In this document: positions 35,154 to 63,987 of the stretch, in pieces | How positions within the stretch are numbered: position 1 is the stretch's first letter | Layout: every line of letters begins with the position of its first letter | Source: a virus | IMG/VR virus record: IMGVR_UViG_3300027746_000697 | Coordinates: 1 to 64,000 of that record | Reading direction: 5' to 3' (one strand) | DNA length: 64,000 nt | The notes under the pieces: generated by a model | Databases searched by the model: none | The model's input: the letters and a program-made list of their open reading frames with translations, nothing else | What the model was told of the DNA's origin: nothing | Translations under genes and position numbers: made by a program

Positions 35154-35192
35154 AAAGTATAAATACACAATAAGATATCTTAGGACGCCATC

Positions 35193-58609: not shown

Positions 58610-59311
58610 TTAACGTAGACGTGCCAGACCCACTAATCTAAACAGGCCCAACCACATCCAACCTATATCAAATTCAAACCAGCGGCGACTGAGACGAGGA
58701 TTTGCGGGTTCCAAATGATGATTATTGTGCAGACATTCACCGCCAATAAGAATGCCCCAAGGCATAATATTTTTACTTTTATCCTTAGTTTCGCCATTTC
58801 TATATCCTATCCAATGTCCAACACCGTTGATAACACCTGCGGCCCAGAACGGAATCCATATCATTTGCACACCCCATATAACTAGGCCCCACGGTCCAAA
58901 GAACAGGCAGTCTATGACCAGCATTAGAAGAATACCAAGGCGGCTATGGGGTGTGTAAATGACCCGTTCAATCCAATCCTCAGGTGTGCCTACACCATAT
59001 TGTTGAATCATTTCTTTGTCTTTACTTGCTGAGTGATATAAAACTGCTCCCTTAAACAACACACGCCAAATACCGTATATGTGCGGAGTATGAGGGTCGC
59101 CTTCTTGATCACTAAATCTATGATGTTTTCTATGGATAGCTACCCACTGCTTGGTAACCATTCCGGTTGTGAGCCACAGCCAGAATCGCATAAAATGCTC
59201 CAATACAGGGTGGAAAATAATTCCTTTGTGAGCTTGTCCTCTGTGTAAATACAGAGTAACGCATATTATAGTAATATGCGTCATAGCCAAAGTTGCTATA
59301 AGTTCTATCAT
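58610..59311 (-). CDS. membrane fatty-acid (delta-9-type) desaturase
   Basis: His boxes HRGQAH, HRKHH, HNNHH; EFDIGW. Confidence 0.92.
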   Translation of the reverse strand: MIELIATLAMTHITIICVTLYLHRGQAHKGIIFHPVLEHFMRFWLWLTTGMVTKQWVAIHRKHHRFSDQEGDPHTPHIYGIWRVLFKGAVLYHSASKDKEMIQQYGVGTPEDWIERVIYTPHSRLGILLMLVIDCLFFGPWGLVIWGVQMIWIPFWAAGVINGVGHWIGYRNGETKDKSKNIMPWGILIGGECLHNNHHLEPANPRLSRRWFEFDIGWMWLGLFRLVGLARLR

Positions 59312-59338
59312 GCAATATTTATCCTACTAAAGACCACT

Positions 59339-59974
59339 ATGAAAACCATAGCTTTGTTTGTACATGATCCAAAATGCTCTGTACAAAGTGCAAACGGCAT
59401 TATGCGGGCACTGAGTCCACATTACAGATTTAAACTATTTGGGAAAAATCCCCTAGAAGATGTGTTCTTTGATGATGTTGATATGATAGCAATTCCTGGA
59501 GGAATTGGGGACTCGGAATCTTTTCATTATCTGCTTAGAAACAGTGGAGACTTGATCCGTCAATTTGTCAGCAAGGGTGGCAAATATCTAGGCATTTGTA
59601 TGGGTGCATATTGGGCCGGCAGTTGTTATCTCAATGTGTTAGACAGTGTGGATGCTGTGCAATACATCAAGCAACCTGGAACAGACACACGTCGCCCACA
59701 TGCCAAAGCCGTTGATGTAACGTGGAATGGTGTACAGGATAAGATGTTCTTCTATGACGGATGTGCGCTAGTCGGTGATGTTACTAAATTTACAACGGTT
59801 GCCACGTATGCCAACGGTGATGCCATGGCCATTGTACAGAATAATATTGGGTTAATAGGATGCCATCCTGAGAGTGAACAATTTTGGTACGACGGATACA
59901 GTTGGTTAAAAGGAAAACATCAAGATCACCATCATGCACTATTGCTTGAATTTGTTGATAACTTGATGAAATAA
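59339..59974 (+). CDS. BPL-N / class I glutamine amidotransferase-like protein
   Basis: IPGG, GGKYLGICMGAY, GCHPE. Confidence 0.8.
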   Translation: MKTIALFVHDPKCSVQSANGIMRALSPHYRFKLFGKNPLEDVFFDDVDMIAIPGGIGDSESFHYLLRNSGDLIRQFVSKGGKYLGICMGAYWAGSCYLNVLDSVDAVQYIKQPGTDTRRPHAKAVDVTWNGVQDKMFFYDGCALVGDVTKFTTVATYANGDAMAIVQNNIGLIGCHPESEQFWYDGYSWLKGKHQDHHHALLLEFVDNLMK

Positions 59975-59977
59975 AAA

Positions 59978-60074
59978 TGCTCACTTTCGAAAGTCTAGGA
60001 TTCCCGGCCCAGCCACTCGCGCCAGCAGCCGGCGCACACTCCGTTACGAATAACGGGTCCTAAGGTGTGTTCTT
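59978..60074 (-). ncRNA. candidate structured ncRNA
   Basis: GC-rich multi-stem segment between convergent genes, UUCG-capped stem, own TAAATA motif at 60088-60083, trailing U run. Confidence 0.55.
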
Positions 60075-60085
60075 TAATAAAGTAT

Positions 60086-60868
60086 TTACCTTCCTATATA
60101 TACTTTAGGCTCTGCTTCGGATTGTCGCTGTTTTTCAGACTTGGGAAATAGCTCGTTACCGTATTGAGGATATTTTTGCTGTCGATCGTAAGCTACCCAC
60201 ATAAAAACTCCACCCATGACAAATATTATAAACACGATTGCAATGCCTATTATGAAATCTTCTCTAATTTGTTTCATTCGTGCCGCACGTCTACGATCTT
60301 GTATAGCTTGACGTTGCATCTGACGAGTAATAAGAACACTTTGTTCCTTGCCCATCTGTTTCATCATTTCTTCTACTTCAGTGTATAAAGCTCCTAGTTC
60401 TTTGGGACTTTGATACACCATCAATTCACGCAACTCTACTTCCATTTGTTGTAATTGCTTTTTCATCAGGACACGCTGTAAAGCACGTTTGCCTAAACTT
60501 GCGTCACCTGTGTACACTTCAGTTTTTGCTCTGCGCTCTTCTTCTTCAAACACCGCTATGCATTTGTAAAAGTTATCGTAGTATGTGCCAAGGTGATTAC
60601 CAATTTCTGTATAGATACCAGTGTGCTCGTCTGCATTGGCTTTTTTGTTTAATGTAATTACCCGATTTTTTTCTTCTATGAAAGCATTTTTCTGTGCCAC
60701 CGTGGGAGGTTTTTCAGGTGGATGTAATTTTTGAAACTGTGCATCAAGATCTTTAATCACATCCTTTACATCACCAGCCGCGCCTTTGATGTCTTTGTAA
60801 AGTTTACACCCAGCCTTAACAGCGGAGACTGCTCCGTTGGCCAAAGCAAATAGTGTAATTGGATCCAT
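60086..60868 (-). CDS. helical protein with MDPIT amphipathic N-terminus and C-terminal TM
   Basis: coiled coil plus TM. Confidence 0.75.
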   Translation of the reverse strand: MDPITLFALANGAVSAVKAGCKLYKDIKGAAGDVKDVIKDLDAQFQKLHPPEKPPTVAQKNAFIEEKNRVITLNKKANADEHTGIYTEIGNHLGTYYDNFYKCIAVFEEEERRAKTEVYTGDASLGKRALQRVLMKKQLQQMEVELRELMVYQSPKELGALYTEVEEMMKQMGKEQSVLITRQMQRQAIQDRRRAARMKQIREDFIIGIAIVFIIFVMGGVFMWVAYDRQQKYPQYGNELFPKSEKQRQSEAEPKVYIGR

Positions 60869-62967: not shown

Positions 62968-63033
62968 ATGGCCCAGAAGAAAAGAACACCAATGGAACGT
63001 GCGGCTCGCCGTGCTACCAAAAAGAAACGTTGA
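62968..63033 (+). CDS. 21-aa highly basic peptide (not in ORF track)
   Basis: GGAGA SD; MAQKKRTPMERAARRATKKKR. Confidence 0.6.
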   Translation: MAQKKRTPMERAARRATKKKR

Positions 63034-63041
63034 TTTAAAAA

Positions 63042-63435
63042 TTGTTGTAATCCCTTCAAAACGAAGGCATGTTGGACGAGGGTTCGATTCCCTCCATCTC
63101 CACCAAAAAGGTTTTTAATGGATCAGTGGGACGAGTACTTTCCTCCTTTGAATTTATGGAACTATAGCCTACATTGGCAATGGTTCAATGATCCAATAGA
63201 AGAAGAAAATCTTTCTGATGGGGATGACCAGGTTTCGACAGCGTGAGATAGTAGAGACGGCAACACGATAGGCGATGGACGTAATCCAAGCAAAAACCGT
63301 AAATGCAAACGCAAATACATTTGAGTATTTCAAAGTTCCAGCTTCAGTAGCTTTTTCAGCTAATGATGCAGACTTTGCAATGGTAGCCTAAGAAACTACA
63401 ACTCCGGGGCTGGTTAGCCTTGTAAACCAATAACC
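63042..63435 (+). ncRNA. ssrA: circularly permuted (two-piece) tmRNA: acceptor piece ~63042-63105, intervening segment 63106-63219, coding piece 63220-~63435
   Basis: T-arm GAGGG-TTCGATT-CCCTC plus CATCTCC-A-CCA precedes 5' GGGGATG-ACCAGGTTTCGAC; 7-bp acceptor stem with G3.U70; tag ORF 63305-63391. Confidence 0.9.
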
Positions 63436-63463
63436 AAAAAAGGCACTTTCGAGTGCCTTTTTT
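63436..63463 (+). terminator. intrinsic terminator after tmRNA
   Basis: AAAAAAGGCAC-TTTCGA-GTGCCTTTTTT. Confidence 0.9.
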
Positions 63464-63534
63464 CTTGACCTCATGCAATATAGAATATATACTAGTCTTA
63501 GTGACTGACGTCATTATATTAAAAGGAATTAATT

Positions 63535-63987
63535 ATGAAAAAATTAGCAATCGCATCAATGTTGGCCTTGGCCGCATTTTCAGCAAGTGCTGTAGAAGTT
63601 GGCGTTAATGGTAGTTATGATTTTGGCGGTGCAAATGACCGTCCAGGCGCTGGTATTACCATTGGACAGAAATATAACAAATTTGGAATCACTGCTGGCT
63701 TTGATCGTTACACCAAAGGTACTGATCAAAACAAGTGGAACCTAATGGGTTCATATGATGTTGCTACTGTGGCTGGTGCTACTGTTGCAGTCAAAGCTGG
63801 TGCAATGTATATTGACAACACTGGCAGAGTAGCAGACGGCTATGCCGCATTGGTTGGTGCTGGCGTAAGCTACCCACTTAGCAAAACTGTTGCCTTAACT
63901 GCTGATTATCGTTATCAAGCAGGTCAATCGCGTGTAAACACATTTGACGGTAGCACTGTTTTATTTGGTGGCAAGTACTCGTTCTAA
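63535..63987 (+). CDS. outer-membrane beta-barrel protein (OmpA-TM/Ail-Lom-like)
   Basis: signal peptide, amphipathic strands, C-terminal G.KYSF. Confidence 0.85.
   Translation: MKKLAIASMLALAAFSASAVEVGVNGSYDFGGANDRPGAGITIGQKYNKFGITAGFDRYTKGTDQNKWNLMGSYDVATVAGATVAVKAGAMYIDNTGRVADGYAALVGAGVSYPLSKTVALTADYRYQAGQSRVNTFDGSTVLFGGKYSF

Follow-up and report, generated by a model that had tools for sequence, protein, structure and literature searches.

A conserved, structured RNA of roughly 95 nt is found on the minus strand of a 64,000-nt stretch of viral DNA, positions 1 to 64,000 of IMG/VR record IMGVR_UViG_3300027746_000697, the whole of which is called the window here. The RNA is a single-copy element of uncultured giant lake phages. 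Its unpaired segments are the most conserved part of the element in the alignments, and their antisense likeness to ribosomal RNA (rRNA) is its main feature. This likeness points, with a confidence that stops a little short of even, to a trans-acting RNA presenting antisense segments that would pair with host rRNA. The reading is favoured because the helices drift while the unpaired letters complementary to rRNA stay fixed, and because independent loop classes converge on one neighbourhood of the 23S rRNA.

An earlier note, made from the letters of the window alone, had drawn attention to this site. The minus-strand sequence quoted there is present, and the element itself can be placed at 59978-60073. 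The proposal of a novel structured non-coding RNA outside the known families has held up, given the strong covariation, the single-copy conservation in related giant phages and the lack of an Rfam match. The element was also rightly described as rich in G+C, with values of 0.50-0.51 in 100-nt windows across it and roughly 0.33-0.45 nearby; the part matched by the covariance model has a G+C of 0.58. The antisense likeness to rRNA was absent from that note.

Distribution of the element

Relatives were sought by three pattern scans of IMG/VR. An exact scan with the 18-nt P2 hairpin returned 73 loci, of which 52 hold the whole element and 21 are unrelated G+C-rich coding sequence. The second scan contributed 7 divergent members among 11 matches, and the third, with a three-block pattern, at least 120 stretches. 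The element is present in at least 175 of the 359 loci collected, in at least 135 distinct versions, and never twice in one locus. Synteny was of no help because the slot downstream of the neighbouring 260-aa gene is highly variable; the element is downstream in only 2 of the 80 loci with a homologue of that gene.

A covariance model, R1, was built from constrained folding and a hand-annotated seed of 31 sequences, and 100 of the 108 non-redundant loci entered its alignment. R1 finds exactly one match in each of the 100 sources, which total 954 kb. The element of the window scores 65.7 bits with cmsearch (E 9.6e-17, full model 1-96) and is the sole R1 match in the complete 116.6-kb record. Five large related records (285-374 kb, 86-100% complete), three of them chosen through a flanking protein and not the element, have one copy each. 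Three of five further records have one copy; the misses are a record that is 61% complete and a complete 180-kb phage. Together, 8 of the 10 large related records carry one copy and 2 carry none. One copy per genome and locus rules out a dispersed repeat of the repetitive extragenic palindromic (REP) or miniature inverted-repeat transposable element (MITE) kind.

Of 185,579 species genomes, 3 contain the strict pattern, in each case on a contig of a metagenome-assembled genome. These contigs (L360, L361 and L362) are 14.6, 233 and 183 kb and bear the labels Lishizhenia, Acidobacteriota and Haliscomenobacter. Probably they derive from phages and were binned with bacterial genomes; they may also hint at the hosts. 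The strict pattern was not found in 50,697 cultured-phage records. BLAST searches against cultured phages returned none with a 1,301-nt query, and a 97-nt member gave 5 chance fragments (E 0.3-0.9).

Fold and conservation

In the family fold, helix P1 (5-7 bp) surrounds an internal loop, J1, with the sequence CUUAGGAC(C), and a hairpin, P1a. P2 (4-5 bp) is closed by an invariant 7-nt loop, GGCUGCU. P3 and P3a come next, followed by an unpaired tail, AAGUGAGC. Across the 100-member alignment 91.6% of cells are standard pairs, as opposed to 62.1% in column shuffles, none of 500 of which reach the observed value. There are 530 double-change cells versus 155 in the shuffles, and when the partners are slid by 1-3 columns as a control only 31-46% remain paired. 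The collection of homologues and the covariation test suggested in the earlier note thus came out in its favour, 19 of the 22 pairs having compensatory changes.

Each helix contributes to this signal. P1 is paired in 91.2% of cells, with compensatory changes at 4 of 5 pairs (for example ACACC/GGUGU and ACUCAC/GUGAGU), and the same figures apply to P1a. P2 is paired in 99.0% (3 of 4 pairs; GCGCC/GGCGC, GGCC/GGCC, GGGC/GCCC), P3 in 93.0% (4 of 4) and P3a in 82.9% (4 of 4). The evidence for structure comes solely from relatives, because the single sequence folds no better than its shuffles: the minus strand has a minimum free energy of -29.9 kcal/mol (z = 0.11; 109 of 200 shuffles equally stable), and the plus strand likewise gives no signal (z = -0.68). 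Plain MAFFT and RNAalifold on the unaligned members had no success. On the model alignment RNAalifold recovered only P2, P3 and P3a, which amounts to 12 pairs, 9 of them compensatory.

Two of the four stems drawn in the earlier note are those of the family, namely CACAC/GTGTG around CCGTTA-TTCG-TAACGG and GCGCC/GGCGC, both of which covary. The other two did not survive comparison with the relatives. ACTTT/AAAGT is not conserved; ACUU partners GAGU as the outer stem P3. A TAGGA/TCCTA pseudoknot is unsupported because CUUAGGAC is unpaired and invariant even in relatives without any UCCUA, and TCCTAG pairs locally with CTGG as P3a.

The unpaired segments are conserved independently of how members were found. 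J1 is present in every member recognised by a search that forced only the P2 hairpin, and in all 8 matches of a model search that forced no motif. The P2 loop is invariant in 7 of the 7 members found without forcing it. P1a is dispensable, being missing from two members, L369 and L370. In three others (L258, L317 and L357) a long insertion, a second and larger hairpin, replaces it, so the P1a arm tolerates replacement. The loop of P3a falls into four classes in 135 members: L3a, ending in UUCGCUAC, with 93; L3c, GUCGUG, with 25; L3b, GGGAAU, with 10; and L3d, CGCCA, with 7. The window has L3b, the second-rarest class.

Complementarity to ribosomal RNA

The conserved letters resemble universal rRNA primer sites, a likeness that was then tested. 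The E. coli K-12 rrnH operon served as reference, and its 16S, 23S and 5S rRNA were scanned without gaps and with shuffled controls.

J1, CUUAGGACC, is exactly antisense to E. coli 23S 1921-1929, at the base of helix 69. As CCUUAGGACC it complements 23S 1921-1930 at 10 of 10 positions, a score equalled by 3 of 300 shuffles, and with the two bases that precede it (60065-60066) it forms an 11-nt perfect complement of 23S 1921-1931. The P2 loop with its flanks, CGGCUGCUGG (60022-60031), is a 10/10 perfect complement of 16S 518-527, the 530 loop, equalled by 1 of 300 shuffles. Both sites belong to the most highly conserved stretches of bacterial rRNA. The L3a loop, UUCGCUAC, is the exact reverse complement of 23S 1930-1937, directly adjoining the J1 site. 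Across all rRNA the best site of L3a is 23S 1929-1939 and that of L3d is 23S 1967-1979, in the same helix 69-71 domain. Among the conserved unpaired segments, complementarity to rRNA exceeds chance in score for J1 and the P2 loop; for L3a and L3d only the location of the best sites stands out.

Other comparisons point to the same sites. Consecutive runs of 7-mer matches (23S 1919-1931 and 16S 517-522) occur only in the antisense reading, while runs in the sense, reversed and complemented controls are of 3 or fewer. Single 7-mer complements of the tail and P2 loop at 23S 1099 and 1070 were taken as chance because such matches are equally common in the control readings. When 24 of 138 members were sampled and compared with 440 rRNA windows, every one formed its most stable duplex with 23S 1901-1930 (14 members) or 16S 501-540 (10 members), at a mean of -41.6 kcal/mol compared with -33.5 for shuffles. 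P1a resembles the antisense of helix 69; of the 135 members, 110 contain GUUA and 82 GUUAC. None of J1, the P2 loop and the tail finds a complement in the phage transfer-messenger RNA (tmRNA), and nothing notable was seen elsewhere in the window.

Divergent members appear to retain the pairing to rRNA. L370 has CUUAGGGCC, in which an A-to-G change preserves a wobble with U1923, and L369, which lacks P1a, has a 13-nt loop, CUACCUUAGGACC, antisense to 23S 1921-1933. A UAC extension of the antisense stretch, contiguous to 1933, is found in 28 of 42 members without CGCUAC in the third loop, as against 13 of 93 with L3a; these counts ignore kinship. In one bacterial phylum, 36 of the 81 genomes sampled contain the exact 17-nt 23S target, and none contains its reversed control.

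Proposed mode of action

A small, stable RNA of three domains would be read from the minus strand of the window, probably as the 3' end of the upstream transcript or excised from it. Its helices would hold out three single-stranded segments for pairing with host rRNA. J1, together with the helix-69-like P1a, and the third loop would target the base of helix 69 and helices 70-71 of 23S rRNA by pairing (E. coli 1906/1921-1937, or around 1967-1979 for other loop classes). The invariant P2 loop would pair with the 530 loop of 16S rRNA (518-527). The helix 69-71 region and the 530 loop flank the ribosomal A site.

We infer the pairing itself and the form of rRNA that takes part in it. Because mature 70S ribosomes keep the target segments buried or in base pairs, the likeliest substrates would be incompletely folded rRNA, in nascent subunits or assembly intermediates, or free subunits with a mobile helix 69. 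The likely outcome would be disturbed maturation or joining of subunits, or an RNA tethered to ribosomes, within a take-over of translation by the phage. More specific, and more tentative again, is the proposal that a single-copy guide-like RNA docks by Watson-Crick pairing onto both 23S helices 69-71 and the 16S 530 loop and so disables, marks or re-purposes ribosomes or assembly intermediates. An antisense agent at helix 69 can block translation, as with a peptide nucleic acid (PNA) directed there (Kulik et al. 2017, cited in PMC12828698); the review PMC12828698 reports a block of both translation and E. coli growth.

Several points weigh against a trans-acting antisense RNA. The pairing or burial of the target segments in mature ribosomes is one. 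Because the rRNA lead arose once the family had been seen, any combined odds are post hoc. By score L3a and L3d lack significance (51 and 115 of 300 shuffles equal them) and only their location is telling; L3b, as in the window, and L3c have no significant rRNA complement (155 and 41 of 300). The invariant tail, AAGUGAGC, is without an explained partner. In unconstrained partition-function folding the segments have an unpaired probability of 0.41-0.61, compared with 0.38 elsewhere, and are not clearly open. One complete related phage (G010, the record of locus L012; 179,754 bp with terminal repeats) has a homologue of the 260-aa gene and no match to the RNA model at E<=0.01. No public RNA runs are listed as containing the region of the element. 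With respect to the strand, the count of G.U pairs was taken from an alignment fitted on the chosen strand, and the model structure is more stable on that strand in only 54 of 100 members, so that energy does not discriminate.

Alternative explanations

It is unlikely that the RNA acts through a protein partner or its own chemistry, as a scaffold, decoy or ribozyme, and that the likeness to antisense rRNA is a coincidence among motifs conserved for another cause or a leftover of its origin, for example from a captured rDNA fragment. Such a role would suit the tail, which has no rRNA complement beyond chance (93 of 300 shuffles equal), the 5' A-rich flank, which likewise has no rRNA partner, and the L3b and L3c loops. 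It would also suit a candidate pairing of 3-4 bp between UGCU of the P2 loop and AGCA of the tail, which would occupy both of these invariant pieces. It does not account for stems that drift freely around letters fixed precisely where they complement rRNA, or for differing loop classes and a UAC extension that all lead to one neighbourhood of the 23S rRNA. The neighbours are diverse and mostly of unknown function, and their 27 upstream and 59 downstream gene clusters rule out a constant protein neighbour. The ribozyme envisaged in the earlier note finds no backing, since the element matches no Rfam model of a self-cleaving ribozyme (hammerhead, twister, HDV-like, pistol, hatchet) and none of 145 flank-inclusive sequences contains the hammerhead core CUGANGA.

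Less probable still is a cis-acting element at the 3' end of the upstream mRNA, such as an end protector, a processing signal or an unusual terminator, which would be compatible with a trans-acting RNA derived from a 3' untranslated region. A same-strand open reading frame (ORF) ends 40 nt or less upstream of the element in 92 of 135 members. In a span of 70 nt on either side, the motif TAAATA, which the earlier note had taken as a late promoter for the RNA itself, is present upstream in 18 of 133 members and downstream in 42 of 133, where it clusters 2-19 nt after the element. Since TAAATA is commoner after the element than before it, and same-strand ORFs end just upstream, the element resembles the terminus of the transcription unit upstream more than it does a gene with a promoter of its own. 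The window departs from the family trend in having TAAATA upstream, at 60083-60088. The motif is not enriched in the window (57 observed, 59.7 expected). Many of its copies there are promoter-like, about 27-53 nt upstream of same-strand ORF starts (for example at 35160, 37298, 39410, 51045, 56729, 58066 and 59246 on the plus strand).

In 43 of 135 members, the window included, at least four consecutive T occur in the 10 nt after the tail, and the element of the window is flanked by convergent genes, both of which would fit a 3'-end function. The remaining 92 members have no T run nearby. A simple scan for intrinsic terminators called none at the element, where the U run comes after an 11-nt unpaired tail and not directly after a stem. 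There is one copy in a genome of 285-374 kb, where transcript ends number in the hundreds, and strictly conserved unpaired letters are not expected of a hairpin that protects an end.

An improbable alternative is that the plus strand is functional, as a mimic of rRNA with sense copies of helix 69 and its 3' flank, the 530-loop core and a piece of helix 70, which would soak up a molecule that recognises these sites, for example a modifying enzyme, a toxin that cuts ribosomes or a factor. Reverse-complemented, P1a and J1 do resemble helix 69 with its flank, and structure energy favours neither strand (54 of 100; -9.38 versus -8.54 kcal/mol). However, G.U and U.G combinations number 84 in the model pairs and A.C and C.A 28 (about 41 and 11 for P3 and P3a alone), which favours the minus strand. 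Flanking genes are also mostly co-oriented with the minus strand, the next gene in 94 of 131 members and the upstream ORF in 92 of 135. The G.U/U.G excess and the gene orientation agree, and the minus strand is therefore taken, with some reserve, as the functional RNA. Nor would one small RNA that mimics three unrelated rRNA sites have an obvious single target. It is very improbable that the RNA serves as a splint on which a phage RNA ligase would rejoin cut rRNA to repair ribosomes damaged by a host toxin: its only attraction is geometry, in that the antisense stretches span functional rRNA sites, and an Rnl2-type RNA ligase (PF09414) was found in 1 and RtcB in none of five records that all carry the element.

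Comparison with known RNAs

The element has no match among Rfam families. With Rfam 15, no family in the window reached its gathering threshold except tmRNA, at 62980-63463, and so the search suggested in the earlier note does not remove the novelty of the element. A scan of 59800-60300 at E<=10 gave three chance-level matches (E 1.8-6.3), all at least 35 bits below threshold. ARAGORN found no tRNA at the element; its only find in the window is the tmRNA, at 63013-63482. A riboswitch or other cis-acting leader does not fit the 59 downstream clusters, or the downstream genes on the other strand in 37 of 131 members, the window among them.

One likeness is to the box C/D and H/ACA guide RNAs of archaea and eukaryotes. 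These too are small and structured, expose segments antisense to conserved functional rRNA, and address neighbouring stretches of one target with two separated guide pieces. The phage element differs in fold, has no partner enzyme in view, and contains neither the C box RUGAUGA nor C and D boxes in order (each 0 of 145); an ACA within 9 nt after the tail is seen in only 14 of 145. Unlike those of guide RNAs, its two pieces complementary to 23S rRNA are permuted relative to a continuous antisense strand. We know of no box C/D or H/ACA guide RNAs in bacteria or phages.

Other systems also share features with the element. TURBS motif 1 of caliciviruses and some 3' translation enhancers of plant viruses lie near the ends of ORFs, and pairing with 18S rRNA that would hold a ribosomal subunit has been proposed for them. 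The phage element resembles them as a viral RNA near ORF ends with complementarity to rRNA. They act in cis on a downstream ORF, whereas 37 of 131 members of the phage family have a convergent downstream gene, and its complements lie around helices 69-71 of 23S rRNA and in the 530 loop of 16S rRNA, not in 18S rRNA. In group II introns the exon-binding sites EBS1 and EBS2, two loops of one folded RNA, pair with two adjoining target stretches. J1 and L3a are similar in this respect, and in the same 5'-to-3' order, but intron domains, domain V and a nearby reverse transcriptase are all lacking, and the gap holding the element is only 111 nt. The synthetic PNA shares the target helix with the phage RNA and is man-made, short and unstructured, while the phage RNA is natural, folded and directed at several sites.

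The locus

The source record is 116.6 kb with an estimated completeness of 32%, the window being its first 64 kb, which include genes for ribonucleotide reductase, virion proteins and lysis and a permuted tmRNA. The element sits in a 111-nt gap between two convergent ORFs (Table 1). The 260-aa ORF has 499 related stretches in IMG/VR. The element is directly upstream of homologues of the 232-aa amidotransferase-like gene in 4 of 80 loci.

Table 1. Features of the element and its surroundings, in window coordinates
Feature	Position	Strand	Remarks
Whole conserved RNA	59978..60073	-	96 nt as matched by R1
P1 5' strand CACAC	60065..60069	-	pairs with 60035-60039
J1 unpaired CUUAGGACC	60056..60064	-	inside P1 internal loop
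P1a hairpin CCGUUA-UUCG-UAACGG	60041..60056	-	resembles reverse complement of 23S helix 69
P1 3' strand GUGUG	60035..60039	-	pairs with 60065-60069
P2 hairpin	60020..60034	-	stem 60031-60034 with 60020-60023; loop GGCUGCU 60024-60030
P3 5' strand GAGU	60015..60018	-	pairs with 59991-59994
P3a hairpin CUGG / loop GCCGGGAAUC / CUAG	59995..60012	-	loop class L3b
P3 3' strand ACUU	59991..59994	-	pairs with 60015-60018
3' tail GAAAGUGAGCA	59978..59988	-	core AAGUGAGC at 59979-59986, invariant in alignments
Run of five U	59973..59977	-	directly 3' of tail
TAAATA	60083..60088	-	'late promoter' of the earlier note; overlaps TAA stop (60086-60088) of upstream ORF
ORF upstream of element, same strand	60086..60868	-	260 aa; no Pfam/PHROG family
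Convergent ORF	59276..59974	+	232 aa, like BPL_N / class-I glutamine amidotransferase; PF09825, E 1.3e-10

The slot 3' of the 260-aa gene is hypervariable. In loci L003-L082 it holds differing ORFs, opposite-strand tRNA genes (for example L007, L053, L058-L061 and L072) or the RNA element. An association of the element with tRNA clusters can be ruled out, as tRNA or tmRNA genes share its locus in only 4 of 135 members.

About 3 kb from the element in the window, at 62980-63482 on the plus strand, is a circularly permuted tmRNA gene of the two-piece type, with the tag peptide ANANTFEYFKVPASVAFSANDADFAMVA. In L036 and L337 a tmRNA is likewise found 1.7-2.6 kb away from the element. Some of the cargo is odd for a phage, including a fatty-acid-desaturase-like protein (58610-59311, minus strand), the BPL_N/amidotransferase-like protein (59276-59974, plus strand) and a weakly outer-membrane beta-barrel-like ORF (63535-63987, plus strand). 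Desaturase-like and amidotransferase-like genes adjoin the element again in other phages.

Novelty and meaning

Full-text searches of the literature found no description of this RNA or of a phage RNA aimed at rRNA. Phages take over translation with proteins, tRNAs and tmRNA; to our knowledge, a dedicated phage RNA aimed at the ribosome's own RNA is not a described strategy. A survey of 2023 derived 8,495 unnamed candidate structured RNAs from IMG/VR (PMC10690425), the same data source, likewise with covariation evidence in intergenic regions of phages. The motif, with its 175 or more loci, may well be one of them. In its accessible text that survey reports no overlap with rRNA and mentions no antisense likeness to it.

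Even without regard to rRNA, the element stands as an RNA gene of giant phages that is widespread, single-copy and strongly covarying and has no assigned family. If the antisense reading is true, the element would be the first example in a bacterial virus of a natural antisense RNA that targets rRNA, and a counterpart in the bacterial world of rRNA recognition of the small nucleolar RNA type. Should the pairing be real, it would add a new layer to the conflict between phages and their hosts and would help to tell when helix 69 and the 530 loop can be reached in living cells. It would also represent a natural design for the antisense recognition of structured rRNA at multiple sites, which bears on antisense antibacterials directed at helix 69.

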